From Eledone cirrhosa (taxonomy: Eukaryota): a DNA stretch of 64,000 bases. Below the pieces are notes generated by a model. The model saw only the letters and a program-made list of their open reading frames with translations. It had not been told where the DNA came from and did no database searches. Location: NCBI GenBank assembly GCA_964016885.1, contig OZ024740.1:178312001-178376000 (forward strand), given 5' to 3'. A program made the translations under genes and the position numbers. Of this stretch, positions 1 through 61,566 are shown one piece after another (within the stretch, counting starts at the first letter, position 1; each line of letters begins with the position of its first letter).

Positions 1-475
1 GGGTTAAAGACAGATACTTTCCTCTTCGGCGAATCCCTAATTAACTTTTTCAAGTTTCACTTGAAGAGGAAAATCAGGGTGGAGAGGCAAGTGCTGCCTT
101 CTAGCAAGTTTGTTGAAAGGTGGGTGAATGTTGCGAGAATGGTCCGAGTGAACGGGACCGCTCTGAATATACGCCTGTAGTTTAAGAAATGGAAAAATTG
201 AGAGAGGGCGCTTTCCTTGGTGGTCAGGTTGGCCGTGGTCTTTTGTGTGGTTTTCGCCAAGAGCAAACCTCGGAGTTTTCCCCCCGATTGGAGAATATAT
301 CATTGTTTCAATTTTCATTTTTATTGTTTATATATATGTGTCTATGTGTTTATTTCTTTTATTATATAAATAATAAAAATCTTTACACGGACAAAACCCA
401 CATCGTATCGTCCTGTACCGTCCTGTACTGTCTGTAATGTTTTTCTTGATAGCCCTTGTGGCCAATAAAGAAATC

Positions 476-523
<48 letters not shown>
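1..523 (+). mobile_element. 3' end of Tx1-clade LINE (subfamily A), with (ATT)n tail
   Basis: Reads ...LFGESLINFFKFHLKRKIRVERQV...VRVNGTALNIRL* (TAG 178-180), homologous to the ORF2 C-termini at 16034 and 59822. AATAAA at 464-469, (ATT)n at ~478-523. Confidence 0.85.
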
Positions 524-10730: not shown

Positions 10731-12544
10731 ATGGCGGACAAAGAAAATTATCCAGAGGGAAGAACAGCGAGTTGTTCAGAGGGTGGTAGAGCCATTTCCA
10801 CCCAATCACAAGGCAAAGTAAAAAACAAGAGAAACAGCAGCAGCAGCGACAGCGACAGAGATAATGATATCAGCAACAGCTGTCACTGGAACTGTAGTAG
10901 CAGTAGTGAAAATTAAAACGAAAAATTTCCTGCGCTACAGAAATCAAACACCACTACCACCCCAATAACAACAATAAAAACAGCAACAACCACAAAGAAC
11001 CCAAAGAACAACAACTATAACAGCAGCAACACAGAGGAAAAAGAAAGAAACAAAAAACAGCAGCGACGGCAACAAAGACAAAACTAGTGACGTGTCAACA
11101 CAAATCAAAACAAACACATCTTTCGCGAAAGCGACCAACAAGTTTGAGCAAATAAACATCACTAACAAAATAAAACAAGCAAAGGTCTTGGTAAAAAAAA
11201 ACCGGACACAGAGTAAGTCTCACCCGCCCAGCTGAGATAATAACAAACAAACTTTTGTGTTCGGTCAGTTATTGGTACGATCGGATCAAAATCCAGGCGA
11301 GTTGAACGGGCAACGGAGTCACAGATCCAAAGAGCTATGGGTGCCGTCTGGGCACAGAAACATATATAGCGCGGGGATCCAGATATGGCACTGTGGGTGT
11401 GCTCTTCGCTACACCAGAGGAAGCCAGAACACACTCCATTGCACCACTCCGCAGCGACGAAATCACAATGATGCCCACATATTGCGGCCAGAGAGTCGTG
11501 AGGGTTCGAGTAGGCCAGGTTCCACCCTCAGTGGAGAGGGCGTGGTTGACGGCAGCCGTCCTCGCTGACGTTGAAGATTCAACAACCATACTCAACGTCA
11601 TACGAATAAGACAGGAAAATTGGACAGGGTCGGGATGGAGCTAATCATCCAAGAAAACCACGAAAGCGTTGAAGCCATCCCCGATGTAATAGACTTTGAC
11701 GACGGCAGCCATCTACCCGTGACTGTCGAAGGTAGGCGCCCAAGGTGTCATGGATGCGGTGACAAGACACACCTTAAGGCATTCTGCCCCAAATTTACCA
11801 AAACAGGCACGCGCCCACCCCTTCTCCTCACGCCGTGCCCCGCAACTGGAGCAGACAAACAAACAAAGAACACAGTGGCAGAAGAGAAATCACCATCCCC
11901 AACAACAAAAACACCATCTCTTCCACCACCCACAAAACCAATGGAAAGCATACCCCTTTCTGATATAGCCAAATCGGACAAGGAGTGCGATGAGGCCGAA
12001 GAGTGGAGAACTATTCCAACAAAAAAAGGAAGAACTCCCTACCCTCATCCCCCCCCCCCCCAAAAAAAAAGAGGAAGAAAGAACCTTAAAATAAAAATGA
12101 AAACTACCCCAACTCCACCACCATCAACAGCCACCCCCCCACGACCACCGCCACCACCACCACCACCACCACCCTTACCATCTACCCCATCGTCACCTCC
12201 AACAACACGACAGCAAACACAGAAAACACCAACACCCAAACAGCAGACACAATACACAGCCATAGACAGACAACACATAGCTTTTAAATTACATTCAACA
12301 CCACACCAACACCACAGAAACAAACTACGTACAAACCACCAAAATTGCACCCCGCACACACATAAAAATAATAGAAATTACACAAAAAAAATTACATAAC
12401 ATTAAAAAAAATGTTCCCACATCAATTGGAGACTACCGAGGGAACATCACCAAAAGAATATTCACGGATATTCTGGCGGAGAAACCCACCAATGGTCGCA
12501 GGGATTGATCACTCACCGCCTTCCTAAAGAAGAGCCACAGGTAA
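10731..12544 (+). pseudogene. ORF1 (gag-like, zinc knuckle), frameshifted
   Basis: Fragments MADKENYPEG..., GVLFATPEEA...VRVRVGQVPP and CHGCGDKTHLKAFC (CX2CX4HX4C), then a Pro/Thr-rich tail. Confidence 0.75.
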
Positions 12545-12593
12545 TTTTTTGTACCTCTACCCTCTCACTTGTTTTCCTCCTATGCTAGCCAAC

Positions 12594-15500
12594 ATGGCTA
12601 CTCACAGAATAGGTAGCATAAATGTACGTGGCCTGGGGTCGTCTTGGAAGCAGGGGCACCTGCTGAACGATCTCAGATCGCTAAACATAGATGTGGTGGC
12701 CATCAGCGAGACCAGAATCTCCGAGGCATGGGCCTTCGCACCGATCTTCGGCGGCTACGATGTGTACGCATCTCCCAGCCGTCCTGGATAGGGGTGGGGG
12801 TGGGGTGGTGGTGGTGGGGGGGGGGAGTTGGTGTGCTTTTCGGAGAGTTTTGGATCTCGCTATACGGGCCATCTTCCTGGACCCAGAAGGTAAGTTAGTG
12901 GTGCTGGACGTGACCAGCGGAGACGGGCAAGCTTTCAGGCTAGTGGCCATCTATGCCCCGATATGAGCAGGGCGGTCTGATTTCTTCCGGCGTCTGGAGA
13001 CCTTTCTTGGAACGTCCCGCTCTTTAGTGTTAGTGGGCGACTGGAACGGGATCTTAGATGCACGCTGGGACTGTGTAGGATTAGCGGATAGGGGAGGAGG
13101 GTGCAAGAGCCTCACCAACCTGCTCAGGCGTTTTGAACTGTCTGACAGGTACCGATTAGATTTCCCGAATGTGCAAATGTGGACTTGGACAAACCGTATC
13201 AGGTCATCCAGATCATATCTAGATAGAGTATTTAGTAGGGAAATATATAGGTCTAGCAAAGGCTGTCCACAATTCAAGATAGTCAGCAACACGGACCACA
13301 AATTCCTGATCTGTGTGGTTGATTTAGATAGGCTTCATAGACAAGGACCCGGCTACTGGAAGCTAAACGCGTCCTTACCAGCGCGCAAGTCCTACGGAGA
13401 CCGGATTAGCGAACTAGTTAAGCGGGCGTTGACGGGGTCCATCGTCAACAACAAGTGGTGGTTTGCTCTGAAAAGAGCCATTAGAACAGAGTCCATTAGG
13501 TTTAGTAAGGCTTTAGCAATAGAGAAAAACAGGGCAGAGGGAGAACTAGTTAGAAAATTAGACGAGACGCTTAGCAAGGCATCGCGACCGACGTACTTGC
13601 GGTGAAATTAGCCCTTGACCAATTCTTCAATGCAAAGCACGAAGGCTGCGTTGTCAGAGCTAGGGTGCGTGCTCTCAGACACGAGGGGACGAAAGCCGTT
13701 CAATGGGCCCGAGTGGCGGAGGCGCGTCATGGAAACAAAGCCACGATCCGGTGTTAGGTGGACCACGACGGGCGCATGCTACTCGATCCCGGGCAAACGT
13801 GTGAAGCTTTACAGCGACACCTCGCTCAGCTGTTCGGGGGCAGCGGCGGCCCGGATCGAGGGATGGACATTAGTGTCTACCTTGACAGACTGCCGCGGCT
13901 CTCGGCCACTGAGGCGGAGTGTTGCGAAAAGCCAATAACAGCAGCTGAAGTACGGGAGGCAATGACTGGCTGTACAAGGGGTAAATCGCCTGGTTTGGAT
14001 GGTCTGCCCTATGAACTTTACGTACAGATGCCAAATATGTTCGGAGGCCTCTTGGCGGACGTCTACTGCAACTGGCAACAGAACCATAGAATTCCCAGCT
14101 CTGTGAGCCGAGGAGCGGTGGCGCTTCTGAAAAAGGATCCGAACAAGGCGGATGACATAGATAATTTCAGGCCCATAACTCGGCTAAACACTGAGTTCAA
14201 GATTTTGGCCAAGGTGCTAGAAAAGAGGTTGGCGCTTGTCGTTGGTGTTCTGGTAGGAGAGGCGCAGACATGCGCCATTCCCGATAGATCCATCCACGAC
14301 AACCTCCACCTCATGCGATACATCGTGGAGCGGGTAGCTAGGGAACCTGGCACTGGTGGGTCCTTGATTAATTTAGATCAGTCGAAAGCTTTCGATAGGG
14401 TCGACCATCGTTATCTGGCGGCAGTCCTGAGGGCGGCTGGCTTTGGGCCCGTTTTCAGAGGCTGGATCGCTGCCATGCACAGCGACATCTGCTCTGTGGT
14501 GAGAGTGAACGTCAGCTTTCAGAACCGTTCAACATCATGCGCCCGCTCCGCCAAGGATGTCCCCTCTCGTCCCTTTTGTACGTATTGACTCTCGAGCCAT
14601 TACTGCACAAACTGGAGACGTTGAGGGGTTCCTGCGCGAAATAGGATGCGGAAGATCCGTGTCAGCATATGCGGACGATATCACCGTAGTGGTGTCGAAC
14701 GCCAAACACATCAAGGCGATCGGCACTACACTAAGAGAATACGAAGCGGTGACAGGAGCAATGATCAACCATGAAAAGTCGGTGGGCCTGCAGCTCGGCA
14801 CCTGGAGAGGCAGGTCCATGCCGTCCAACAGCGTCGTCGGGCGCTGAACGGACGGACCGGTTAAATTGCTAGGGGTCTGGTTCGGTCCGGACCTCCAGAC
14901 GGACAAAAACTGGGACGAGGTGACTAGCAGGGTGGCTTCTCTCATCCAGAAACGGGCGGAGGGGAAGCTATCCCTGAAAGGTCGAGCGGAGATGGCTAAC
15001 GCGTACATCGCGTCCGTCATCTACTACCGCCTGACCGTCGTGCCTTGACCTAAGCCTCGCCTGACTGCGCTGGAGCGTTTGCTCTTTCGCTTATTGTGGA
15101 AGGGACGCTCTCCGATGGTCAGGCGGTCCATCTGCTGTCAACACCCGCTGCGTGGAGGGCTGGGCATGCCGTGGCTGATGATGCGTAGACACACGCTCAG
15201 ACTATGACAACTCCACCTCTTCCTCGACGGTGATCAGGTGTTGTTGCCGTTTGTTAGACGCGTCTTTCCCCAGCTCATCTCCTTGACGGAGCTGCAGTCC
15301 TGGGTCAAGCGAAGGCCGATAGGGTGCGCTTGGAGACTTGAATGTCTTCAGGCGCTCACAGCCCTCGACCAATCGGGCAATGTGATCGGTGGAAACTCCA
15401 CCTTGGCGTTCTATAGAGGATTAGTGGAGGGGAAGAGCGACGACGTACTAGGGGAATCTGTAGGCGTCGACGAAAATCAACTAGCCAATCTCTTCGGAAG

Positions 15501-16034
15501 AACTTTCGGGCCGGGGCCTATGGACAACTTCCAGAAATCCCTGGCCTTGCAGTGCTACCGAGGAGCTTTGCCAGTTCGGGATAAACTCTACAGGCATGGA
15601 GGTGCCGTCAGCCGGGTATGTCCGAGATGCGCGCAGGGCTACGAACCGTCTTGCACGCACTCGTCCAGTGTCCGAGCATTGCTGACTTGTGGGTTTATGT
15701 CGAACACCTGCTGTCGCGTGTAGGACGGATCCAGCTATCAGCTGAGACCATCGTGAGGATTGCCCCGCCCTCTTCCTTTAGCCGGGAAGGGCAAGCAGTT
15801 TTTATCTGTCTGGTGGCTATGGCGAAAGAGATAGTATGGTGGACACGTTTGAAAGGGCTGAAGACGAGCACTTACCTCTTCGGTGATGCCCTGATTAACT
15901 TTTTCAAATTTCATTTGAAAAGGAAAATCAGGGTAGAGAGGCAAGTGCTCTCTTCCCAGCATTTTGTTGAAAGATGGGTGAGAGAAGCAAGTATAGCCCG
16001 AGTGAATGGGCCTACTCTTAGTATGTGTCTATAA
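12594..16034 (+). pseudogene. ORF2 APE endonuclease-reverse transcriptase, multiple frameshifts and stops
   Basis: IGSINVRGL, VGDWN, SYLDRV, TDH (APE); KSPGLDGLP, FRPIT, DQSKAFDRVDH, AYADDI (RT); CPRC...H...C finger. Confidence 0.9.
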
Positions 16035-17208
16035 ATTAAAGGTGGAAAACTGGGAGAGGGCACATGCCCTGGTGGTCAGGGTCACTGTGGCTTTTTAATG
16101 AGCTTTCTCCACGAATGTACCTCGGAAGTCTCCCCCTATTGGGGAATTTTTTCATTGTTCTATTATTACATCCTCCGGTTTTGGTTTTTTTTACACGCAC
16201 AAATGCCCTTTTGTACCGTCCTTTATTGTCCTGTACTGTCCTTAATGTCTACTTTGTGTAAACCCTTTTGGTTAATAAAGAAAGCATTATTATTCAAAAG
16301 TAGAAACCATTATTATTATTATTTCTTTTTTTTTTACCAACTGTACTTGTGATCCATTATTTTTCTCGTGACTACTTTTGGATGCTGTTGTGCTTGTATA
16401 TTGGGCTCTTAAATGATTATTTAAGGCAACATAAAACACACTACTACCATCAACTTTCAGCTATAGTCGCTTGTTAGATTGCTCCAATACTTGTTGCACA
16501 AGACACATTATCTCGAAGCACTTTCAGAACTTCGATTTTACACAAAAGAAAATCGGCGTCTAACCTCACTGTTTTCAATTTACGTTTACACATGTACGCG
16601 CGTGTGCACAAACTCATTTACTTTATATACATAGAATATACACGAAATACACACGATTACACAAATGTTAGGTCAATGCAGTCAATTTCTGTTTATCCTT
16701 GTATTTCTGTGTCGCCATGATAAGGAAAAATTTCCAATAAAGCCAACAGTGTAAAGCTGTATGAAAAATTTTATCTATGGAATTCCAGCTCCTACTTATC
16801 TGAGACATACATGCAGCGGGCTGTTGACATTTCTAACATGAACCTGTATCGACTGCTATTCTCTTTCTATGGTGGTAAATTCCTGTTACCTCAGTATGTG
16901 GTCAGGCTATATGAAACATTTAGTTGTAGAATTTTTCGAATTTACCTGACATACACATATACACACGTACATACTCATACACACAAACACACACACATAC
17001 TCTCTCTCTCTCTTTCTATTTCTCACTCTCTCTCTCACACACACACAAACATAATTGACTAGAAATGATATATAATCAGAGAGATAATTGATATGAATGA
17101 ATAGTAGAACGAAAGTAAGTGTTAAATGTTCACACACATACACACATACACACACACGCACACGCACGCACGCACACACACACGCACACATATACACACA
17201 CACACATA

Positions 17209-22470: not shown

Positions 22471-22812
22471 GTAGGTGAAAGTGGCGAGAATGGCCCGTGT
22501 GAATGGGCCTTCACTTTACATAAGCCTGTAGGTGGAAAAGAGGAAGGAACGAGGGAGCACCCCCTCTCTGTGCTTCTGAGGAAAAGGGTTGCACACTTTT
22601 TTCGGGGGTGTGTGCGACCCCCCAAGGCGCCTCCTCTCTATTGAGGATTTTGTCATAAATTTTATTTTTTGTTATATTTTATTTTATTTTTATATTTTGT
22701 TATTGCCTCCTCCTTATTGAGGACGCCTTTTTGTGTAAACTCCCCCTTTGTACTTGTCCCACGTTTGATGCCCTGGTAGCAAATAAAAGAAACATATCTA
22801 TCTATCTACCAG
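22471..22812 (+). mobile_element. 5'-truncated 3' end of Tx1 subfamily B, flanked by an 18-bp duplication
   Basis: Homologous to 28260-28555. TATCTATCTATCTACCAG at 22453-22470 and 22795-22812. Confidence 0.8.
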
Positions 22813-23037
22813 TCGTGTGTAACTTCGCGGAGAAGTTTCCGTAAATTTATGTAAGAAAAACCGTGAGTTTTCAGTTAAATTTTATATTATTGTGTAACTT
22901 GATCCTCCGTATGGACTTTCAGGCGGTGGGTCAACTTATTTTCGCCCCTACAGGGGCGAAATATTTGTTTTAAAAATTTTTCTCCATCGAATTTTGAAAA
23001 AAATATCATAAGTTTGATTACGCTATGAACGCTGCGT

Positions 23038-24898
23038 TTGGCGAATAATGGTAGTGGAGAGTCGGTAAGACTACATAGCTCGCAGTCAACATCGTCTTCT
23101 TCCCTTTCCTTCTCCATAAATACTATGGAGATGGAAAGACGAAATCAAATTGTAAAAACAAATTCATATCCAAACGACACAAATGACACCAAACAGTACA
23201 ATGACAACAAAAATAACAACAACAACACCAATAATGATGATAAAAACAACAATGACAACAACAACAAAGAAAAAAATAAAGACAACACCAATAATACCAG
23301 CATCAAAGACAAGATCAACATCAACACCAAGGAAAATACGAAAATATCAACATCAGTGATGACAATAACAACAATAATGACAACACCACCAACACGGATA
23401 ATTCCACAAAGAATCCGAAAATCTCCTTTGCACAGACAGTTCAGAAAAAGGAGGAACAAACATATCTCGACATATCAAATGCCGAACAACTTCTAAAGGA
23501 CGCTAGAAGATATGTTACTTTCGAAAAGAATGGTGCTTTCAGCATCAATTCCCCTGTAGAAATTCGTAAGACCATAGTTTTTAGGACAGTTTCCAATTCT
23601 ACCTGAAAACCGGTCCAATTGTCACAGAAAGAAACTGAACTGGTTTTCAAAAATTCAATGAATGATATTTCATTCATTCAAAGAGGCAAACTCTTTGGGA
23701 GTATTTCGGTACTCATGAAGGATCAATTGACGGCCCAAAATTACTCTGTGTCGCTAATTGTATCCAACCTGTATACATACATGGGAAAAAGGACACAAAA
23801 GATTAGAATCACAAGTGTCACACCAAAGGTAAACAAAGATATGGTGGATACTGTGCGGCTTCATCAATTTTGATGAAGACAGAATACTTTCAGTAGGAAA
23901 GTCCCCCAGAGATGTATTTAATGGGACTAGCGTTGAAGTTCTGGTGCAAATGAGCCTAGAGCGAATAGCTATGATCCCACAACGTGTACTCCTGGACGGA
24001 CTTACCTACATAAACGTTTCGGTTGAGGGTAGGCGGCCTTGATGTTACCACTGCTTTAGCAGGGGTCACCTGAGGGCTTCCTGTCCTAAATTAACGAGTA
24101 AAAAAAAGACTCATCTGCCGACACGCATCAAAATAACACAACCACCAACACCACCACAACAACACCAACACACAAAAATAACCACAACAAACACAGTCCC
24201 ACCCAACCCCACTCCACCTAAAACCACTGCAAAATCACATACAGACACAACAGCTCCCCAAAACATACCCCTCCCCAATCACACAACGATACAACAGATG
24301 AGGCTATCTCGTCATCACCCAGTGAAGACGAGGGAGAACCCCATCGCTCGAAAAGAAAAAAAAGACACCACAAAAACAAAAGACCAGCAACACTACCACA
24401 AACATACAACCACCAACACAAACAACAAAAAACATCACAAACAAAACCCTCACCTCCTGAAAACAAAATACCTACAACAAAACGAAAGCACACACAAGAA
24501 CTACAGACAAAAACAAACACAAAACAAGAAAATTACACTTACACTTACATAAACACTGAAAACAAAACACTAATGGAGACCATCACGAACAATCATTTGG
24601 TGAAAACTGTATTAAAAATAACAACAAAATGAACCTAAAACTGATTAGGGTCCCTATACAAACTTATAGGTGCCTAAAAGAAACATTTGAAAAGGATGTG
24701 GGGATCTCCTGCGTGAAACCACTTAACCGCGTCCTTCTCAAATGTCTCCCCATCCCAGACACCCCCACCCCACCAGACAGCCCCACCGCACCAAACATCA
24801 CGGTCCCCACCCCACCGGAAACCACCATCCACCCAGACAACCCCTCCAACACCCCCATGGAAATCGTGCAGCCTGGTCTCCAGGAGGCGAAGAGGTGA
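23038..24898 (+). pseudogene. ORF1 of Tx1 subfamily B, disrupted
   Basis: N/T-rich N-terminus, VSVEGRRP*CYHC...H...C, and C-terminal fragment ending QEAKR*. Confidence 0.7.
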
Positions 24899-24938
24899 GT
24901 GATTTCTTTTCCTCTTCTTTTAACTTTTCAGCACCAAC

Positions 24939-27900
24939 ATGGCCAATATAAGAGTTGGATGTGTGAACGTACGCGGCCTGGGGATGCCCTGGAAATAGGG
25001 CAAACTCTTAAACGACTTCAGGTCGCACAGTATGGATGTAGTAGCCATTTGCGAGTCCAGAATCCACAGCGAGCGACATCTGGCCCCCATCTTCGACGAC
25101 TTTGAGATCTACGCATCTTTCTGTCAGCCGGGAGGTGGGAGAGGGGTTACCGTTTTGCTCCGGAAACACCTGGACCTCGTAACACAGACGGTACATCTGG
25201 ACCCGGAGGGTCGACTGGTGGTCCTAGACGTTGACGGTATTGAAGGTGGAGCCTTCAGGCTGGTGGCCGCATATGCCCCATCCGGGACACCGCGGCCAGA
25301 CTTCTTCAAACGTCTAGAGACTTTTCTGGGAACGTCCCGCTCTCTGCTTTTAGTGGGAGACTGGAATGGAATCCTAGATGCACGTTCGGGCTATGTGGGA
25401 GCATATCCCGATAAAGGGGGGTGTAACAGCCTCAAACAGTTAATCGGCCGATTTGACCTGGCCGATAGATATCGACTAGATTTTCCGACTGTGCCACTGT
25501 GGAAGTGGTCTAATCGCAACGGAACATCTAGATCGTACCTAGATAGGGTTCTAGTTAGAAATAAGGATAGGGACATGTTAAGCTGTCCACAAATGTTCAT
25601 GGTTGCCTATTCAGATCACAAACTAGTGACCTGCGTGGTAAACCTTGATAGAACCCATAGACAAGGACCCGGCTACTGGAAGCTGAACTTGTTACCGACA
25701 TGCAAAGCCTACAGTAGACGGATTAGCACTTTAGCTAAACAGCACTTGACAGAGGCCATTGTCAACAACATATGGTGGTACTCTCTCAAGGGGGCAGTTA
25801 GATTAGATTCGTTAGTTGTTAGTAAAGAATTAGCGTTAGATAGAAATAGGACCGAGAAGGAACTGGCAGATAAAGTAGAAGAGGCAAGTAGAAGTGGAAA
25901 CGTAGCCATCGTGCTAGCAACGAGAACGGCCTTGGACCAGTTCTCCGACGCAAAGCCCGAGGGCTGCGTTGTCAGAAGCAAAATACGTGCCCTGGGTAAC
26001 GAGGGAGCCAAAGCTGTTAGCTGGGCCCGGGTGACGGAGGCGAAAAGTGGCAACAAGTCCACGATTCGGTCTTTGAAGGACCAATACGGACGCGTTATAC
26101 GTGAACCAAAGCAGAAGTGCGCGGCCTTTCAGCGGCACTTTGCTCAGCTGTTCGGGCAGGGCGGCGCGCCGGAAGGGGCTATGGACTTCGGTCCATACTT
26201 CGACGGCCTACCACGACTCTCGGACAGCGAGACCGCTGAGATAGGGGACGCGCTGAGCCAATGCGGCAAACGCAAATCTCCAGGTCTCGACGGTCTACCC
26301 TACGAATTTTGCGTAGCGATGCCGGACTTGTTCTCTTGTCTCCTGGAAGCGGTCTACTTCAACTGGCAGCAGAACGGGAGAATTCCCAGATCTGTGACCA
26401 GGGCCGTAGTCACACTAGTCAGGAAGGACGAGAATAAGGGGAATGACATAGGAAACTTCCGGCCCATAACTCTGCTAAACACAGAATTACAGATTTTGGC
26501 CAAGGTGTTGGCAAAGAGCTGGCGCTTGTCGTCGATAATCTGGTGGGAGAAGCGCAGATATGCGCAATCCCGACCAGGTCCATACACGACAACCTCCACC
26601 TCATGCGATACATCATAGAGAGGGTAGGGTGTAAACTCGGCTTCGGTGGGTCCCTGATCAACTTGGATCAGTCTAAGGCTTTCGATAGGGTTGACCATCG
26701 TTACCTGGATGCGGTGCTCGAGGCGGCAGGCTTCGGACCCGTGTTCAGGGGCTGGATTGCTGCAATGCACAACAGCAACATCTGCTCAAAGGTCAAGGTG
26801 AACAGCTACCTCTCGGAGCCGTTCCATATCACGCGATCCATCCGACAGGGATGCCCTCTCTCCTCCCTTCTGTACATACTCACTCTCGAGCTGCGGAAGT
26901 TGGAGCTATTGCAGGGCATCCCTCTAGAACAGGGAGTGCAGAAGGCGGCGTCTCCCTACACCGACGACGTGACAGTATGGTGTCGAACACCTCGTAAATC
27001 GAGGAAGTCGGCACCTAACTGAAGGAATATGAAAGGTTCGCAGGAGCGAAGCTGAACCGGGACAAGTCCGTACGTTTGCAACTCGGATCATGGAGAGGCA
27101 AACCGATGCCTTCAGATGGCGTCGTCGGACGATGGACGGAAGGACCGGTAAAGATGCTCGGGGTCTGGTTTGGTCCGGATTTCCAGGTGGAGAAGAACTG
27201 GAACGAGGTGACGGCCAAGGTGTTTGCACTCACCCAGAAGTGGGCCGAGTGCAAACTATCCTTGAAAGGTCGGGCGGAGGTTACGAACACTTTTAAAGCG
27301 TCCGCCATCTACTACCGCTTGACCGTCGTGCCTTGTCCAGCTAAAACGCTCACCAAAATGGAGCGTGCGCCCTTCCAATTCCTTTGGAATAAGCGGGCTC
27401 ATTTGGTGAGAAGATCCATTTGCTTCCAACACCCTTCCAACGGAGGGCTGGGGATGCCGTGGCTGACGATGCGCAAACACGCGCTCAGGCTGCGGCATCT
27501 CTACGTACTCCTCACCGGATAACCGGTGTGGGCCCCGTTCGTGAGGTGAGCCTTCCCACAATTCGTCTCGCTGACCGAGCTGCAATCCTGGGTCAAGCAA
27601 AGACTGAGGAAAATGGGCGACTGGCACTCACAGCCCTCTGGCAGGCGGACCCGGCGATCAGTGGAGACTCCACTTCGTCATTCTATAGAGGGTTGATCCG
27701 CAGCAAGTGCGACGACGCGCTCGAAGAAACTCTAGGCGTAGAGGAAGACGAACTGGCCAGTATGTTCGATAGGACCTTCCGCCCGGGACCGATGGAGAAC
27801 TTCCAAAAGTCCCTGGCCTGGCAGTGCTACCGAGGAGCTCTACCAGTTCGAGACAAGCTCTACAGACATGGGCGCCCGGGCAGGGACCCTACGAAAAAGA

Positions 27901-28319
27901 TCTGTCCGAGATGTGTGCGAGACGAAGAAACCGTCGCGCACGCATTCATACACTGCCCGGGCGTTACCGACCTGTGGGGCTATGTAGGACGACTATTGTC
28001 GTGGGTGGGACCAATCCCGTTGACCACCGAGTCCATCGTCATGATCAAACCGCCACCCTCCTTCAAAAACGAAGGAGAGGCGGTTTTCCTTTGTGTGATA
28101 GCTATGGCGAAAGAGGTTGTAAGGTGGACGACGTTAAAAGGGCTGAGGTCAGAAACCTTTCTCTCCGGCCAACAACTGATTCTTTTTTTCAAATACCACT
28201 TTGGAAGAAGGATCAGGTGGGAGAGAGAGGTGCTGTACCCCAGCAAGTTTTATAAAAGGTGGGTGAAAGTGGAGAGAATGGCCCGAGTGAATGGGCCTTC
28301 TCTCTATATAGGCCTGTAG
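24939..28319 (+). pseudogene. ORF2 APE-RT of Tx1 subfamily B, frameshifted
   Basis: MANIRVGCVNVRGL, VGDWN, YSDH, FRPITLLN, DQSKAFD, RQGCPLS, YTDD, CPRC..ETVAH..C. Confidence 0.9.
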
Positions 28320-28559
28320 GTTGAGGAAAAAGAGGAAGAGAGGAAAGAGGTACAAACTCTTCGTACTCCTGGAGATGAGGGTTGCACATTTTTTCGGGGG
28401 TATATGCAACCCATATGAAATGTCTCCCCCTATTTGGGAAAATCGATTAATTTTTAAATTATATTTGTGATAGCATTTTACACGTTTTATTGTATGTAAA
28501 CTTCCCCCTTTGTATCTGTCCTCTTCTTTTGTGTACCTGTGGCGAATAAAGAATCATAA

Positions 28560-28778
<219 letters not shown>

Positions 28779-28786
28779 TATAGAGA

Positions 28787-28848
<62 letters not shown>

Positions 28849-28852
<4 letters not shown>

Positions 28853-29480
28853 TACCAATGCTAACTTTCTTGACATTAATCTTGATATACTTACTGCCTC
28901 TTTTAAACCTGATCATAAACCTAACGAGAATCTAAGATATATACACAAAGAGTCTTGCCATCCCCCTATAGTTTTTAAAAATCTTATTCCCAATATTAGC
29001 CGTAGGATCTCTAATTTACCTCCTTCTCTAGACATTTTTAATAAAGCTGCCTATTATAATAAAGCCCTCAATAACAGCGGCTTTACAGAACAGATTACAT
29101 ATTTACCTACCCCTCCACCTAAAACTAATCACAATAATAGGAAAAGGAAAATTATTTGGTTTACAACCCCCTTCTCTCTAACTGTCAAAACTAATGTAGG
29201 AAGGAAATTCCTTGACCTCCTAGATAAGCATTTCCCCCCTAATCATAGATATTATAAGATATTTAATAGAAATATAGTTGAAATTAGTTACTCTTGCTGC
29301 CCATCTATGAAGTCTAAAATCACCAACTCTAATCGTACGAGAATAAATCCAGGATGCAGTTGCAGAAAGCCAGATGAATGCCCATTACAGGGCAAATGTA
29401 ACACCAAATCCGTTGTATATGAGGCCAAAGTAACACCTTTGATTAACAACCAGCCAGCCAGCCACGATATGTTGGAATGA
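28849..29480 (+). mobile_element. Penelope-like element fragment (RT C-terminus, linker, start of GIY-YIG)
   Basis: [50 protein letters not shown]: motifs typical of PLE ORFs. Embedded in (TA)n. Confidence 0.8.
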
Positions 29481-47999: not shown

Positions 48000-50080
48000 T
48001 GGTCGGTTATTGATGCAAAAGGGAGTTTTTTGCTGTCACTCTCATTTGCGCTTAGCCTCGTGCTCTGGTTTCATCCGGGATCTTGGTCAGCAGGATGTTG
48101 AGATGTGTCTTGAAAACATCTATATGGACACGATGTAGATGCAATAGTGTCTGCATACCAGGTCCTGACTTCTTTATCTTTATCTACTGGTCCTGTAGGA
48201 CCTGTCAGTTTTGTGGACATCTTTCGCTTAGTCTCAAGTTGCAGACAACTAGATGGTGATCAGTTTACAGCACAGCCACTCTATTAACACGGACATCAAG
48301 CATAGAACGAAGAGATCAGAGACAATAAAAAATCAGTTGTTAATCTCTGTCATTGATTCTCCTTATGCCATGTATATTTATGAATGTCTCAGTGCTGGAA
48401 GACAGTATTCTTAATAGAGAGTCCATTGCTAGAACAGGTACCGAATAATGCCTCTCCATTCGTATTTAGATCGGGCTCGACATTCCTTCCAATCATTCCT
48501 GTCCATGTCGAGGTGCATCTGGGAGCGATGTCTAATCTCTCGGAGGCTGAGGTTTCAAAAGCAGTTAAAGAGCTCAAATGTGGCAAGGCCGCTGGGGAAG
48601 ATGAAATCCGACTAGATATGCAAAAGCTTTAAAGTTAGGAGGTGTTCTCTGGCTGAATTGTGTGTTGGGTGGACTGGATCTCTGAAAAGGCACCTAAGCA
48701 ATGGCGATCCGGAGTGATAATCCTAAATTTTAAAAAGAAAGACAAAAGAGATGTTCCAATTACAGAGGGATCTCTTTGTTAAGTTTCCCCAGTAATCTCT
48801 ATGCTAAATATCTGGCAAAGCGATGTAGGAGATTGTCAAGTCCATGTTAACTGACGAATAGTCTGCTTGTCACCTCCGGCGCAGCACAGGTATTCGATAA
48901 ATCGTGGGATTATTGCCAAGATTATTGCCAAGATTGTCTTTTAGATCTCGAAAAGGCACATGACCGTCTTCCTCGAGATCTACTGTGGGAGGTTGTGCAG
49001 GAGTATGAGATCGATGGTCAGCTTCCTGCTGCCCTGATGTATCTATACGAATTCCCAAGTATTTTTGTTCGGATAAATGGTGCTAAATCGAAGCCAATCA
49101 ATCTGGGAGTCGGACTCCACCAAGAGTGCGTACTGTCACTTCTCCTGTTCATTATTTTCATCCCGCCGAGGTTGACTTTGCCTTTCATCCTTACGGGGTC
49201 TATAAAATAAAGTACCAGTAATACACTGGGTAATTGCTGGCCTTGTGCCTAAAGTAGAAACAATTATTTTCATAAACAAGATTGACATGCGCAGCCGGGT
49301 TGAAAGTGGTATCACAACTGGCTGTTGTAAAATCAGTCAGCTGGAATTTCAGACGTCAAGGTGTTAGTGAACTCGACAGGAGGTGATCTACAACTTGCAC
49401 TTGATAGGTTTGATGCCGAGTGCTGCATGGATGGAATGAAAATTAGTGCTGCGAAAACAGACATTCGTCCTTTCAAGGACGCCCGCGCAGTGCGCTCAAC
49501 ATGTGAATGGAGTTCCACTGAAATAGGCGGAGAAGTTCAAGTATTTCGGGGCCGTGTTCACGAGTTATGGACGGCAGGAGACTGAATTAAATGCAAGATT
49601 TTCAGGAGCTGGTGCCTTAATACGCCAGCTTCAGTATTCGGTAATCAGAAGGTGCGATCTTCAATTCGATATTCGTACCAGCCCATACCTATGGTCATGA
49701 ATCTAAGGTAATGACCGAAAGAATACGATCGTGAATACAAGCGGCCGAAATGGGCTTCCTCCGAATAGTGTTTGGAGTAATATTACTCGATCGAGGACAC
49801 AGCTTGGAGATCAGAGAGTCACTCCAAGTCAAACCGCTGCCTTTCCAAAATTGAGAAATCACAGCTCCGATACTATGAGCATGTGATTAGAATGTCTGAA
49901 GATAGAATCGCTGGATAGATTTTAAGGGCAAAAGCAACCGGTATGAGACCCAGGGACAGACCGCGAGCAAGATGGTTGGATAATATCCATGAGCTTGGAT
50001 TGTCTCGCTTCGGGATCCAGCTGGATCCGCTGGAGATGGTTGCTTGTGACAGGACCCGCTGGAAGGCGTGTTTGGGAAAG
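48000..50080 (+). mobile_element. Decayed RTE-clade LINE with inverted 5' (APE) segment
   Basis: Plus strand: EAEVSKAVKELKCGKAAGEDEI, GLHQECVLSLLLF, RPRDRPRARWLDNI. Minus strand 48200-48520: IGRN..PDLNTNG..L.C..NGLSIKNTVFQH and DHHLVVC. Confidence 0.75.
49162..49273 (+). mobile_element. 5'-truncated SINE (family 1) inserted into the RTE RT region
   Basis: 3' half of the SINE, with ATTATTTTCAT duplicated at 49151-49161 and 49263-49273. Confidence 0.85.
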
Positions 50081-50083
50081 ACC

Positions 50084-51650
50084 ACTTACCTCAGTTCTTG
50101 TGGAGGATGGATATTTTTTCCGTCCTTCTGACTGTTTGTGGTCTTCTCCGGAATGGCTTTATATATCCTCCTGGAAAGTGTTTGCAGGAAATGTCCGATG
50201 TCCTTGAGGAATTTTAATTTTAGGGTTGTGTATGTTTTCTGTGTGATACGAGTAATTTGTATGTGTGGGTGTTCTGTTGGATGTAGTGTAATAATTGCTT
50301 ATTGTTCAAGTTTAATGCTGTGTAGTGTGTTTAGGTTTGGGCGCTTTGTTGTGTTTGCGTTTGTAGTAGGTTTGTTTCTGTTTTGCTTGTTTCTGATTTG
50401 CTTGTTATTTGTTTGTTTGTTTCGCCCTCTATTTTTCTGGAGGGCGAAGGAAGAGGGTTCTTTCTTTTCTGGTTTCTTTTTTCTTTACAGATACAGTTTT
50501 CCAACCCTCCTCTTCGTTACCATCCGTCTCCAGTTGAGAGGTCGGGGAGCGGAATGTCCTCCACAGGCGTTGGTTTTTGTTGTGGCGTGGTGGATGTTGG
50601 AGCATTGGTGCTACATCTAGCTCGGTAAGCGGTGGTGGTGTTGGTCTTGCTACTGTTGCTGTTGCCGTTGCTGCTACAGTTGATGCTGCCGTTGCTGCTG
50701 ATGTTTTTGCTGGTTGAGTCAATGGGGTAGGCAGGGGAGGTGGCCTTAACGTTTTAGCCATCCCCTGAGGGCAGAAGGCCTTTAGGTGGGTTCCATCGCT
50801 AAAAACGAGACACCTTGGCCTTCTACCATCAACGATTACGGTGAGGTGGCTGCTGTCATCAAGGTCTATCACCTCCGAAATCTCTTGTTAATAGTACGCT
50901 ATGATACCGTACATAGCCACCGATGTTGCATGGTGTTTGATGGAGGAGTGAGGCTGACCCTGTAGCCATTTTATTTTACTATTCGCCTGGCCTCATTCCT
51001 GGCTTACCTAATTCGCTTCGTTCTTGTTCTCTGTTTTAGCAAAAGACACATTTGGTTTTGAGCTGGTGTTGTTGTTGTTAGTGTTATTTTTGTTATTAAT
51101 TTTTGTTTCAATTGTTGCTGTGGTGGTGGTCTTGTTATAATTTATGTTGTTGCTGTCGTGTGCGTTCCTTTTATTTTTGGTTTTCGTTGTTTCAGTGGTG
51201 GTGGTGTTGTCAATGGTGTTGGCCACGCCTACCGTCGTTGTGGTGGGGGTGGAAGCATTCAGCGTTGTAAACATTGGCAGAGCTGGAAAGTCTGCTTTGT
51301 TTTCAGGAAATAAATTTTGGGCGCTGCTGCTACTGCTGTGCTTGAAGTTGCTGTTATTGTTTTCAGAATGTTGGCTGTTCCACTGTGGACAGCTCACCAT
51401 TTGTTTTCGCGGACACAATACTTTTGTCCGCCATTTTAATTTTCGTAGATAATTGAGGGGCATATTTCAAAAACAAACACGGATTTGGCCCCCAAGGGAT
51501 TCAAGTGGAGCTAAATGAACCAGTACACAAGGATATTGGCTTACGTAGCTTCAAAACGATATCAACATTTCAATGCATAAGGTTGAATAACAGTGAAAAT
51601 AGAAAAGAAATTACAGGAGCGAAATGAACCACGTCTTGAAAGACTGAACC
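50084..51650 (-). mobile_element. Tx1 subfamily A-like 5' portion (5'UTR plus internally deleted ORF1)
   Basis: IDLDDSSHLTVIVDGRRPRC...THLKAFCP matches the ORF1 at 11620. 5'UTR motif CCCTTGGGGGCCAAATC matches 10673-10690. Confidence 0.8.
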
Positions 51651-51710
<60 letters not shown>

Positions 51711-51715
<5 letters not shown>

Positions 51716-54528
51716 GTAGGTGAACATGTTAAACAAACTAAACTTAGAAAATTGAAAAAAAAGTACAGTATAAGATCAACATGTGACATAGACATGCTGA
51801 TAGAAACAATCAAGCAAAAAGTGTCGGCCAAAGCTGCTCGTATAAGGCGCTTTGAAAAACGATCTAGATTCTATAAGGACAATAATATGTTCAAAAACAA
51901 CCAAAGAAACTTCTACAGAAAAATTGGTAAGTCAACAATAACTGCTAAATCAATACCACCCAAGGAGGAAGTGCAAGAATTCTGGGAAAAGATCTGGGCC
52001 GAAGAAAAAGTTCATAACATACATGCCCCATGGATAGACAGACAAATGAAAGAAACAGCTCACCTTGAAGAACAAACATGGGAAAATATAACAGTTGAAC
52101 AGCTGCGCTTGGCTCTAAGAAAAACCAGCAAATGGAAATCCCCAGGAAAAGACAAAATACAAAACTTTTGGATAAATGCCTTCACAGAGTCTCATGAGCT
52201 GTTAGCCCAACTTTACAATGAAATAGTTAAGGAGCCAGAAAAGATACCATCATGGCTAGTTAACGGCATTACATTCCTGCTACCGAAGAATGATGAGACA
52301 AACAATCCCAAAAATTACAGACCGATAACCTGCTTGACCACAATGTATAAAATTTTAACATCAGTCCTAACTGAATACACATATGACCACCTGATAACAA
52401 ATGACCTATTTCCCATTGAGCAGAAAGGGTGTAAACGAGGCTCATATGGCTGTAAGGATCAGCTTCTGGTTAACAAAATGATACTGGAAGATTGTCATAA
52501 TAGACACAAAAATCTATCGATTGCTTGGATAGATTATAAAAAAGCATTTGATAGTTTGCCACACAGTTGGATTGAAAAATGTTTAGAGATTTTCAAAATA
52601 TCCCCCGTTGTCAGGAGGTTTTTGTCATTCAGTATGAGGACATGGAGAACGACACTCCTTTTGAATAGTGAAACAAAATCACTGGAAGCTGGAGAAGTTA
52701 ACATTAATTGTGGAATTTTTCAGGGTGACTCTTTATCACCGCTTTTATTCTGCATCGCACTTATACCATTAAGTAAAATGCTCAATGAAACAAAACATGG
52801 ATATAGAGTCTATGACAAAACCATTAATCACCTGTTCTACATGGATGACCTGAAACTATTTGCAAAAAATGATGAACAATTGCAAGGGCTATTATCCACT
52901 GTGAAGCAGTTCAGTGATGACATTAAAATGGAGTTTGGACTGGATAAATGCGCCAAAGCAACGTTCACCAGAGGAAAGCTGCTGAAGAGTTCAGACATTA
53001 ATCTTGATCGGGGGAACGTGATAAGAGAGCTTGATCAAGAACAAACTTACAAATATCTAGGTGTTTGTGAAGGAGACGGAATCAAGCACTCGACAATGAG
53101 GGAAAGGATAAGGAAGGAATGTTACCGCAGAGTCAGAGCAATCTTAAGAACGGAATTGAATGCAAGGAATAGGATCGATGCCATAAACACGCTTGCCATA
53201 CCAGTAGTAACCTACAGTTACAATGTCATCAACTGGTCAAGCACAGAGATCCGTAGGCTCGATACAAAAATCCGAAAATTCTTAACCATGCACAGAATGC
53301 ATCACCCTAAGGCAGACATAGATAGAATATATCTCCCTAGGAAAGAAGGAGGACGTGGGTTAATCCAGTTAGACATTGCGTTGAAAACTGCAACAATTGG
53401 ATTATCCACATATCTAAGGGAATCACATGATTGGATGATCAAACTCGTTTTGAAACACGAAAGCACCAAAAGATCATATTCCATTACAAAAGATGCACAA
53501 AGATACAGTAATGGACTACAAATTTCAGAAGTCCCATTTACTGCTGAAATGGAAAACACAGAAAAAGCAAAGCAGGTAAAAGTAACTGCAAAGAAAGAAC
53601 TGCTACAGAAACTGGCTAAGAAATGGCAAGAAAAGCCTCTGTATGGAAAATACCCAGAGCGAGCTAACAATCCTGATGTTGACAAAACTTTAACCCATCA
53701 GTGGTTGGCATCCTCTGGACTGAAATCGGAGACTGAAGGACTGATTATATCCGCACAAGATCAGTGTCTGCCAACAAAAAATTACCAAGCCAACATAATA
53801 AAAAATGGGTGCAGCCCACTATGCCGTGTATGCAAAAAACAACCAGAGACCATTGACCATATAATTTCAATGTGCAGTCCTATAGCTCCAACCGAATACC
53901 TAAACAGGCATGACAGAGCTGCACAATACATACATTGGATAATGTGTAAGCATTTTGACCTGCCCCATCAAAAGAATTGGTGGGAGCATCAACCACCTCC
54001 CATACTTGAAAAAGATCACATCTCAATCTTGTGGAACTTTAGCATCCAAACAGACCGAAAAATAGATGCAAATAGACCTGATATAATATTGAAGGACTTT
54101 CAAAGGAGGGTATGCCTGCTAATTGATATGTCTGTTCCAATAGACAAGAATGTATCTATAAAAACATTTGAAAAATTGAGCAAGTATAAGGACCTGGAGA
54201 TAGAAATTGGAAAAATGTGGAAATTGAGAACTAAAACAATACCAGTGGTTGTAGGCGCTCTGGGAATGATACCTAAGGGGTCTAACGACTACTTATCGCA
54301 AATCCCAGGAAACCCGCGTATAGGAGAAATACAAAAGATAGTACTAATGGGAACTGCCCATATACTAAGGAAGATCCTGTCAATATAAGTACATCACAAG
54401 TCTAAACACTAAGGATGCATGTGTGAATATGTGTGTTCTTTCTTGAACATGGCGGACCTTGTTGTCTCTTGAGGTCACTGGTTGTGACTTGGTGATAACT
54501 CGTATAAACATAAAGCAAGATAAATGCA

Positions 54529-55533: not shown

Positions 55534-58500
55534 GACCAAGAAATACCGGGATGGCGGCCGGCGGGGAATAGCCATGTCTCTAGGGGAGAACGACCCCTCT
55601 AGTCTTGGTTGACACTCGTTCTAGAAGTGGTAACACGAAATGATTACCCCTTGGCGGATAAGGATAAAACGCGACAAAATAAAGTAAATGTCTAATGATA
55701 AAATCTCATACCGGATCGGGCGTCACCCGGGTAAAAAAGGGCCGCGTCCCTCAGAGAGGAACCAGACTGGGGTCGAAAAATCAGCTAATGGTTCAAACCT
55801 TCCCATCACTTCGGAGCTGGAGACCTCCCATAACCGGAATACTCCTACTGTTGGCCCTCCATGCTCACCACCAAGAAATCCAAAGAAAAAGAGAGAAAAA
55901 TGGTCAAGGGAAGATAATAAAGAAGTCCTTGAGGCTTTCTACACTGCCATGTACTACCCATCAAATACATCGAATACAGAACAGACATATATCAACTGGA
56001 AAAAGAAACATCCCGAAAACATAGGCTATATTGACAGTAACAAACTAGCCAATATACGAAGAAATATTGTAAGAAAAAAGTTACTAACTGATATAGAAAT
56101 TGATCAGATCAAGCTAGTAGCACAAAGTCAGCGAAGGGAAAATGAAGCACGTGTCAGTGAAAACGAGGTAAACTGTAACACTTCGAATCCCAGGGTTGGG
56201 GTGGAATCACTGGCAACAGAACAAATTAAAGAAAGGATCGAAAAAGTGGAGGGAGTGCATGCTCAGGATGAAACTCCAAATGAAAATAATGAGATCGTAA
56301 ATGATAAAGAAATGAATGAGAATGAACTTGCCAACTTGAAGGATGAAATTATGATCGAATGGATGAAAATGAAAGAATCTGACATGGGGCAACGAGACAC
56401 CCTCCCTAATATCCAGAATTCCAAACAGAACCAAAAGATAATACACAAGACTAACATAATTCTCAAAAACATTATCATCACAAACAAACTAAACATTACT
56501 GACTTAAATCATCTCTATTATGCATCGGCTAAAGTCACCACTCACTTATGTGGAGTGAAGATGAAAAAACAAAGGAATTCCCACAAGAAATCTACTTGGC
56601 AAGATAACATCAATCGCCAAATAAACCTTCTCCGATCTGACATAGAAATTTTAACAAACTATAAAGTTGGTGAACATGTTAAACAAACTAAACTTAGAAA
56701 ATTGAAAAAAAAGTACAGTATAAGATCAACATGTGACATAGACATGCTGATAGAAATAATCAAGCAAAAAGTGTCGGCCAAAGCTGCTCGTATAAGGCGC
56801 TTTGAAAAACGATCTAGATTCTATAAGGACAATAATATGTTCAAAAACAACCAAAGAAATATCTACAGAAAAATTGGTAAGTCAACAATAACTGCTAAAT
56901 CAATACCACCAAAGGAGGAAGTGCAAGAATTCTGGGAAAAGATCTGGGCCGAAGAAAAAGTTCATAACATACATGCCCCATGGATAGACAGACAAATGAA
57001 AGAAACAGCTCACATTGAAGAACAAACATGGGAAAATATAACAGTTGAACAGTTGCGCTTGGCTCTAAGAAAAACCAGCAAATGGAAATCCCCAGGAAAA
57101 GACAAAATACAAAACTTTTGGATAAATCACAGAGTCTCATGAGCTGTTAGCCCAACTTTACAATGAAATAGTTAAGGAGCCAGAAAAGATACCATCATGG
57201 CTAGTTAACGGCATTACATTCCTGCTACCGAAGAATGATGAGACAAACAATCCCAAAAATTACAGACCGATAACCTGCTTGACCACAATGTATAAAATTT
57301 TAACATCAGTCCTAACTGAATACACATATGACCACCTGATAACAAATGACCTATTTCCCATTGAGCAGAAAGGGTGTAAACGAGGCTCATATGGCTGTAA
57401 GGATCAGCTTCTGGTTAACAAAATGATACTGGAAGATTGTCATAATAGACACAAAATCTATCGATTGCTTGGATAGATTATAAAAAAGCATTCGATAGTT
57501 TGCCACACAGTTGGATTGAAAAATGTTTAGAGACTTTCAAAATATCCCCCGTTGTCAGGAGGTTTTTGTCATTCAGTATGAAGACATGGAGAACGACACT
57601 CCTTTTGAATAGTGAAACAAAATCACTGGAAGCTGGAGAAGTTAATATTAATTGTGGAATTTTTCAGGGTGACTCTTTAACACCGCTTTTATTCTGCATC
57701 GCACTTATACTATTAAGTAAAATGCTCAATGAAACAAAACATGGATATAGAGTCTATGACAAAACCATTAATCACCTGCTCTACATGGATGACCTGAAAC
57801 TATTTGCAAAAAATGATGAACAATTGCAAGGGCTATTATCCACTGTGAAGCAGTTCAGTGATGACATTAAAATGGAGTTTGGACTGGATAAATGCGCCAA
57901 AGCAACGTTCACCAGAGGAAAGCTGCTGAAGAGTTCAGACATTAATCTTGATCGGGGGAACATGATAAGAGAGCTTGATCAAGAAAAAACTTACAAATAT
58001 CTAGGTGTTTGTGAAGGAGACGGAATCAAGCACTCGACAATGAGGGAAAGGATAAGGAAGGAATGTTACCGCAGAGTCAGAGCAATCTTAAGAACGGAAT
58101 TGAATGCAAGGAATAGGATTGATGCCATAAACACGCTTGCCATACCAGTAGTAACCTACAGTTACAATGTCATCAACTGGTCAAGCACAGAGATCCGTAG
58201 GCTCGATACAAAAATCCGAAAATTCTTAACCATGCACAGAATGCATCACCCTAAGGCAGACATAGATAGAATATATCTCCCTAGGAAAGAAGGAGGACGT
58301 GGGTTAATCCAGTTAGACATTGCGTTGAAAACTGCAACAATTGGATTATCCACATATCTAAGGGAATCACATGATTGGATGATCAAACTCGTTTTGAAAC
58401 ACGAAAGCACCAAAAGATCATATTCCATTACAAAAGATGCACAAAGATACAGTAATGGACTACAAATTTCAGAAGTCCCATTTACTGCTGAAATGGAAAA

Positions 58501-59475
58501 CACAGAAAAAGCAAAGCAGGTAAAAGTAACTGCAAAGAAAGAACTGCTACAGAAACTGGCTAAGAAATGGCAAGAAAAGCCTCTGTATGGAAAATACCCA
58601 GAGCGAGCTAACAATCCTGATGTCGATAAAACTTTAACCCATCAGTGGTTGGCATCCTCTGGACTGAAATCGGAGACTGAAGGACTGATTATATCGGCAC
58701 AAGATCAGTGTCTGCCAACAAAAAATTACCAAGCCAACATAATAAAAAATGGGTGCAGCCCATTATGCCGTGTATGCAAAAAACAACCAGAGTCCATTGA
58801 CCATATAATTTCAATGCGCAGTCCTATAGCTCCAACCGAATACCTAAACAGGCATGACAGAGCTGCACAATACATACATTAGATAATGTGTAAGCATTTT
58901 GCCCTGCCCCATCAAAAGAATTGGTGGGAGCATCAACCACCTCCCATACTTGAAAAAGATAACATCTCAATCTTGTGGAACTTTAGCATCCAAACAGACC
59001 GAAAAATAGATGCAAATAGACCTGATATAATATTGAAGGACTTTCAAAGGAGGGTATGCCTGCTAATTGATATGTCCGTTCCAATAGACAAGAATGTATC
59101 TATAAAAACATTTGAAAAATTGAGCAAGTATAAGGACCTGGAGATAGAAATTGGAAAAATGTGGAAATTGAGAACTAAAACAATACCAGTGGTTGTAGGC
59201 GCTCTGGGAATGATACCTAAGGGGTCTATTGATTACTCATCGCAAATCCCAGGAAACCCGTGTATAGGAGAAATACAAAAGGTAGTACTAATGGGAACTG
59301 CCCATATACTAAGGAAGATTCTGTCAATATAAGTACATCACAAGTCTAAACACTAAAGATGCATGTGTGAATATGTATGTTCTTTCTTGAACATGGCGGA
59401 CCTTGTTGTCTCTTGAGGTCACTGGTTGTGACTTGGTGATAACTCGTATGAACATAAAGCAAGATAAATGCAACT

Positions 59476-59516
<41 letters not shown>
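55534..59516 (+). mobile_element. Full-length R4/Dong-type element (copy B), recently inactivated
   Basis: Structured 5'UTR, single ORF from 55688 to 59332, (TAA)n tail at 59477-59516. The 5' boundary is approximate. Confidence 0.9.
55688..59332 (+). pseudogene. Dong ORF broken by a 5-bp deletion (~57128), a 1-bp deletion (~57455) and TGG>TAG (58880-82)
   Basis: Direct comparison with copy A. Confidence 0.85.
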
Positions 59517-59518
<2 letters not shown>

Positions 59519-60586: not shown

Positions 60587-60589
60587 ATC

Positions 60590-61560: not shown

Positions 61561-61566
61561 TATAAT

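Follow-up and report, generated by a model that had tools for sequence, protein, structure and literature searches.

We analyzed a 64,000-nucleotide (nt) stretch of the Eledone cirrhosa genome (GenBank assembly GCA_964016885.1, contig OZ024740.1, positions 178,312,001 to 178,376,000, forward strand; hereafter the window), part of a 443-Mb contig in a 3.0-Gb genome. The window carries a full-length, decayed L1/Tx1-type long interspersed nuclear element (LINE) with two open reading frames (ORFs), and a motif resembling a splice donor lies directly on the stop codon of ORF1. The parts of this element are as follows (positions count from the first letter of the window; a slash in a motif marks the exon boundary):

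22807 to 28556, + strand: decayed full-length L1/Tx1-type LINE of family 1 with a subtype B junction, 90.9% identical over 5791 nt to the intact copy L091
23025 to 24898, + strand: ORF1, disrupted by frameshifts and stops, with a CCHC knuckle near 24043 and an end in EAKR and TGA (24896–24898)
24892 to 24900, + strand: 5' splice-site consensus GAG/GTGAGT over the ORF1 stop; of the junction, it is this part that is conserved and likely functional
24895 to 24938, + strand: inter-ORF spacer, 44 nt, pyrimidine-rich, 5' strand of a predicted long-range helix
24925 to 24931, + strand: TTTTCAG, an acceptor look-alike, lineage-restricted and without a genomic trace of use
24939 to 28319, + strand: ORF2 with APE endonuclease, reverse transcriptase (RT) and zf-RVT, frameshifted in this copy, stop TAG at 28317–28319
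28320 to 28365, + strand: start of the 3' untranslated region (UTR), purine-rich, complementary to the spacer and donor region and the predicted 3' strand of the helix
28545 to 28550, + strand: AATAAA signal directly ahead of the simple-repeat tail

In L091 the ORF1 frame runs for 643 codons, and Pfam searches of ORF2 returned PF03372, PF00078 and PF13966, that is, the APE endonuclease, RT and C-terminal zinc finger; the best solved relative of this ORF2 is human L1 ORF2p (E 4.5e-50). ORF1 carries one C-x2-C-x4-H-x4-C motif, which we read from the sequence and for which a Pfam search gave no match. In Atlas look-alikes of ORF1 zf-CCHC stands at 0.92, the look-alike cluster is rich in Mollusca, and comparison with P0043 gave no real match. 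The family lacks long terminal repeats (LTRs), ends in AATAAA and a simple-repeat tail, and includes 5'-truncated copies, as LINEs do. The window copy was inserted after a (TCTA)n stretch; (TCTA)n likewise precedes the 5' ends of L091 and L092 and follows most 3' ends inspected, an observation made by eye rather than a genome-wide count, and such a target-sequence preference is a feature of the Tx1 clade. Copies form tandem arrays, and the closest full-length relatives are ~40% identical. Judged by these features, the element works like L1/Tx1 LINEs. It resembles the microsatellite-targeting L1-Tx1 LINEs Kibi and Koshi in its two ORFs, CCHC-bearing ORF1, APE-RT-zinc finger ORF2, microsatellite insertion and tandem arrays, and differs from the account given of them in its (TCTA)n target (PMC4494074). 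L1-Tx1 also figures among the recently active elements listed for Octopus vulgaris (PMC13282606).

At the ORF1-ORF2 junction of the window copy, GT stands at 24895, AG at 24930–24931 and the ORF2 ATG at 24939; ORF1 ends in PGLQEAKR and the TGA at 24896–24898, a frame we checked against intact relatives. The initial annotation had proposed that this segment is a retained mini-intron fusing ORF1 to ORF2, or an acceptor used with an upstream donor. On the letters its description is accurate: the segment has GT and AG ends and a pyrimidine tract, spans 37 nt, and could be removed in frame from this copy. When the 200 nt surrounding the junction were shuffled 2000 times with dinucleotides preserved, AG/GTRAGT turned up somewhere in 7 of the shuffles. 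Two further donors of the AGG-plus-stop type had been pointed out at 12541 (+) and 50089 (-), and both are present:

12538 to 12596, + strand: family-2 junction, with donor CAG/GTAATT on a TAA stop and an AG at 5 nt from the ATG whose use would shift the frame
50084 to 50092, - strand: family-3 donor GAG/GTAAGT on a TAA stop, in a copy that ends ~17 nt beyond the donor

What had been missed is that a cut at the AG of the 12541 copy would break the frame, and that intact relatives of the family-3 copy at 50089 have no AG ahead of the ATG.

The fusion mini-intron is rejected at the DNA level. Using a gapped motif across the junction, we found 1044 genomic copies that retain the spacer and none with a gap of 0–20 nt. 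In human L1, spliced copies make up ~2% of full-length elements (PMC5860796), so that ~20 would be expected among 1044. Phase is not conserved either: family 1 comprises three junction types, of which A (39 nt) and B (37 nt) have the exon end GAAGAG and would be in frame if cut, and C (34 nt) has the exon end GAAGG, an ORF1 ending in KGE, and would be out of frame. Subtype C is the youngest, with three copies more than 99% alike and ORF2 open (L091, L092, L093). Among the 30 best family-1 matches, which are not a random sample, 26 would be out of frame, as would family 2. The AG between donor and ATG is absent in five of eight lineages (3/3b, 4, 5, 6 and 8, lineage 6 resting on one 30-letter contig end) and present in one subgroup of lineage 7 and not in another. 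L1 machinery preferentially copies RNA that encodes ORF2p (cis preference), so if ORF2p came from spliced RNA, far more than ~20 spacer-less copies would be predicted.

The second proposed use of the AG fared no better. A search for an upstream donor joined to an AG of the 24930–24931 type, with a pattern covering ~4 in 10 random partners, gave no genuine copy; its sole match, L111, is a deletion at CACC microhomology. Subtypes A and B are both common among the 100 matches listed, as are out-of-frame types, and subtype C holds another GT, 4 nt downstream of the first, from which a 30-nt cut would preserve the frame; with the missing processed copies, the variable phase and the inconstant AG set against these points, we regard removal of the mini-intron, or use of its AG with an upstream donor, as very improbable. 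Read-through of the ORF1 stop was considered separately and discarded: ORF1 and ORF2 of subtype C are in frame, but the spacer holds another TAA in that frame. In five contig sets of unrecorded library kind, which were not used as evidence on splicing, the rows inspected contained no joint at the donor, and one X4 contig spans the junction unspliced.

The part of the initial interpretation that holds is the donor, which is kept in all eight lineages, in contrast to the AG, and for which there is genomic evidence of use. G/GTR(A or G)(G or T)T lies on or directly beside the ORF1 stop in every lineage sampled, a count drawn from best-match samples rather than an unbiased genome-wide census. ORF2 identity among these lineages falls to ~70%, and the ORF1 ends are at background identity. 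The donor occurs with TAA, TGA or TAG, in phase 2 in lineages 1A/B, 2, 3, 4, 5, 6 and 8 and in phase 1 in 1C and 7b; the stop lies at donor positions +2 to +4 in most lineages and at +6 to +8 in 1C and 7b, and the donor precedes the ORF2 ATG by 28–54 nt in the 11 copies tabulated. Because three stops and two phases are tolerated, the motif is more than an Arg codon followed by a stop. A loosened donor pattern matched 139 of 170 junction-like stretches; the other 31, which include loci chosen for departing from the donor, were mostly point variants, plus old lineage-7 copies and two false matches. Twenty evenly spaced 10-kb stretches contained 2 junctions. Among 33 metagenome loci, mostly at 26–32% identity, 12 had a visible ORF2 start, and inspection by eye found no such donor in them; across the sequences sampled the feature seems limited to a clade. 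The donor over the ORF1 stop is thus real and likely functional, and it is not the start of a 37-nt intron.

Hybrid copies point to use of this donor. Searching for the family-1 exon end followed by foreign sequence returned 16 and 8 matches, of which 19 were point or indel variants, one was unrelated and four left family 1 exactly at the donor. Downstream of the donor-exact joint the sequence is family 4, whose parents carry GTGCAG right before the joint; of 29 other loci shown, 28 end there in AG and 27 in CAG. A reciprocal search from this cryptic CAG in family-4 ORF1 yielded 17 copies with foreign upstream sequence. In 15 of these a family-1 exon ends at the donor base, and the remaining two are 7-nt local duplications. 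The two parts derive from different families, the upstream part being 92–96% identical to family-1 beta (5 copies) and the downstream part 90–95% identical to family 4.

Three classes can be told apart. H1 joins a delta-type ORF1 to family 4 (9 copies and 1 truncated), H2 joins a beta-type ORF1 to family 4 (2 copies), and in H3 (3 copies and L112) a beta-type donor meets a CCAG within an H1 element, so that a 76-nt exon is present twice. The second, later joint, from donor to CCAG within a hybrid, is thus found in four copies, and as read from these copies there were at least two successive GT-AG joints. GT-bearing parents were found for the beta-type ORF1 (L222, L224, L225), and the delta-type parent is inferred. 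YAG is sparse around the joints, with only 5 to 9 occurrences per 300 nt. At the joint, families 1 and 4 are homologous, and a 23-nt segment is duplicated there; an in-register template switch is disfavored because it would not duplicate that segment. We consider it likely from these joints that the hybrids arose by splicing across tandem copies and were then retrotransposed. In single-joint hybrids (L259, L270 and other H1 copies) ORF1 passes through the donor and stops a few codons beyond the ORF2 ATG; the H1 class is nonetheless present at at least 9 loci, and the H3 double joint restores the native stop.

Mixed tandem arrays occur in the orders 1C-1C-8, 1B-8 and 4-1; the order 1-then-4 was not met among the arrays seen. 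The window itself has such a neighbor:

22474 to 22808, + strand: 3' end of a family-4 element directly upstream of the window LINE, 93% identical to L275

These neighbors form a mixed-family tandem pair, the type needed for read-through splicing. A low-power search of unselected loci for further donor-exact joints found none.

The donor and spacer are complementary, family by family, to the ~45 nt that directly follow the ORF2 stop. We compared 19 linked copies with 200 shuffles each and found at most 4 shuffles as good in 15 copies and 12 in L107. Across six lineages, each with one representative, duplexes between spacer and UTR of the same family had a mean of -40.6 kcal/mol, compared to -29.7 kcal/mol otherwise, and 1 of 720 permutations did as well; with other representatives the figures were 2/720, 11/5040 and 3/5040. 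In alignments scored without favoring G·U, sense-strand G·U oppositions outnumbered A·C by 30 to 13 (p=0.007; 7 representatives, with 5 others omitted as near-duplicates or hybrid), and sense pairing was stronger than antisense in 12 of 12. The 3' UTR holds the complement of the donor in lineages 1B, 3, 5 and 8: in 1B-beta GUGAGU lies opposite ACUCAC, and in 3b and 8 GUAAGU lies opposite ACUUGC, a compensated change. A two-strand fold of the window copy gave -43.2 kcal/mol with the donor partly open. The predicted long-range helix thus probably exists. A local 3' UTR hairpin of the GGAGCAC/GTGCTCC type, at 28340–28372 of the window and in all families compared, overlaps the helix partner of the donor and could be a competitor of the long-range pairing or a recognition site for ORF2p.

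We propose, with slightly better than even confidence, that a functional donor sits on the ORF1 stop and is locked by the spacer-3' UTR helix once the element has been fully transcribed. In nascent RNA the donor would be open to the U1 small nuclear ribonucleoprotein while the 3.4-kb ORF2 is transcribed; when the 3' UTR is made the helix would close, and the full-length RNA would stay unspliced and perhaps exportable, with ORF2 made in the ordinary bicistronic manner. Now and then, RNA reading through a tandem array would escape this lock, and the ORF1 of one copy would be spliced into the next, which would found hybrid subfamilies. The selected role may be protection of full-length RNA by U1 or production of an ORF1-only RNA. 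An intact donor motif reportedly blocks RNA export in human cells (PMC4380460). A wider version, which we offer only tentatively, is a built-in RNA switch in which a U1-bound donor, shut by a helix acting over 3.4 kb, would set full-length against ORF1-only RNA, and in tandem arrays splice-driven exchange of ORF1 would found new autonomous subfamilies. The ORF1/ORF2 balance of LINEs and their ORF1 swaps are usually explained by re-initiation and template switching; if the switch is real, splicing would be added as a LINE regulatory and recombination route, by way of the donor, the co-varying helix and the donor-base hybrids. Such donors, numbering in the thousands, may interfere with host introns of this genome as well.

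Several observations weigh against this proposal. For the hybrids, no GT-bearing parent of the delta-type ORF1 was present among the loci examined, both joints share a 2-nt AG microhomology, and recombinants with joints away from the donor exist (family 2, L229). The hybrids may stem from only two events, may have come from template switching or DNA deletion, and H2 may have arisen by recombination between beta and H1. As for the donor, it is often decayed in old lineage-7 copies, and AATAAA signals that U1 could suppress are scarce in ORF2. Three copies, L226, L216 and L095, have a weak helix, with 28, 51 and 122 of 200 shuffles as good; scoring Watson-Crick pairs only reduces the own-family advantage (3/720 to 112/5040); and the fold leaves the donor partly unpaired in 1A, the window copy, 4 and 7b. 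In the abundant family 2, a 3b ORF2 (94–96%) follows an ORF1 and spacer of foreign origin, and this spacer forms better duplexes with UTRs of family 1 than with that of family 2. Because family 2 pairs less well and is abundant all the same, a full helix is not essential.

The donor might instead regularly serve to remove ORF2, wholly or for the most part, with either the stop TAG of ORF2 or a site within ORF2 as acceptor; the product would be an ORF1-only RNA, at a ratio set by the helix. The position of the donor, precisely where ORF1 ends, would suit this; in 9 of 11 representatives YAG closes ORF2, a pyrimidine-rich TTAG lies at ORF2 nt 415 in 11 of 11, and an RNA lacking ORF2 in cis might seldom become DNA given L1 cis preference. 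Yet no genomic copy joins the family-1 donor to the ORF2 end, and a universal acceptor at the ORF2 stop is ruled out by families 2 and 3b, which end in TAA. The TTAG lies inside a conserved protein motif, which confounds its conservation, and none of the 24 matches above was a donor joint into ORF2, in a test covering 38 of 112 YAG sites. We consider this reading unlikely, and less likely still one in which the motif persists because it belongs to an RNA helix or a signal for translation re-initiation, its donor look and rare use being side effects. The latter gains from the donor complement in the 3' UTRs of 1B, 3, 5 and 8 and from a spacer-UTR complementarity that reaches to a few nt before the ORF2 AUG. 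Complementarity alone would suffice for a helix, though, and does not call for a fixed U1-like sequence, whereas the spacers diverge freely as positions -1 to +6 stay at consensus, even where the fold leaves them unpaired (7b, 1A).

It is also conceivable, but in our judgment highly improbable, that the motif is an inherited accident of an Arg codon and a stop, and that the hybrids are template switches at microhomology. The shared AG at both hybrid joints fits such switches, as do joints elsewhere than the donor, in the first ~100 nt of ORF2 in family 2 and in L229 and L111. Against it, the motif survives changes of stop codon and phase while its flanks become unalignable, and selection from the acceptor side returned foreign partners that, in all 15, end at the donor base.

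Splicing in LINE RNA is already known. Like the hybrids, human spliced integrated retrotransposed elements (SpIREs) are genomic LINE copies that record a splice in retrotransposed RNA (PMC5860796), and the hybrids share with them joints that coincide precisely with a GT donor on one side and follow an AG acceptor on the other. As described there, SpIREs splice within the 5' UTR and ORF1 of one element and are mostly dead ends (PMC5860796), whereas splicing within a single element does not account for the hybrids, which join different elements, keep both ORFs and have spread to at least 16 loci. Ty1/Copia elements that make a short Gag, such as Arabidopsis EVD, also have a conserved donor near the end of the gene for the structural protein, and U1 binding there serves splicing and protects full-length RNA (PMC5580714), which gives a precedent for both roles at a retroelement donor. 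EVD has LTRs and conserves both a short intron and its acceptor (PMC5580714), in contrast to the LINE with its predicted long-range helix and no conserved local acceptor; a subgenomic RNA of the LINE is hypothetical. SVA_F1 and pt_SVA_D6 similarly arose as new subfamilies by joining an upstream exon into the element, reportedly through splicing, but they are non-autonomous and take host exons (PMC7353768), whereas here an autonomous LINE supplies the conserved donor and swaps ORF1 between families. A search of listings of open papers found no conserved ORF1-stop donor, spacer-3' UTR helix or splice-born autonomous hybrids.

The window's family-2 copy (12151–16294, +) is itself a hybrid: its ORF2 and 3' UTR are 94–96% like family 3b, its ORF1 and spacer come from another lineage, and the joint falls in the first ~100 nt of ORF2. 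At the other end of ORF2, GT directly follows the stop in lineages 1, 4, 7b and 8 (window 28317–28325; L220, L275, L294), and some ORF2 ends are full donor look-alikes (TAG/GTGAG, TAG/GTAGGT) that recall recursive splice points; helix pairing may explain this GT. Further fragments of families 3 and 5 lie head to tail at 59484–64000 (-), 1–508 (+) and 50073–51128 (-).

Tandem copies of another non-LTR element occupy 51587–54388, 55688–58882 (+) and 60553–61356 (+), with an RT (PF00078), a C-terminal zinc finger and a PD..D motif; it looks like an element of the R4/Dong type. After the microsatellite tail of the LINE, at 28560–29480 (+), lies a frame without a Pfam match that ends in a stretch containing VVYEAKV, reminiscent of the C-terminus of a Penelope-like element.

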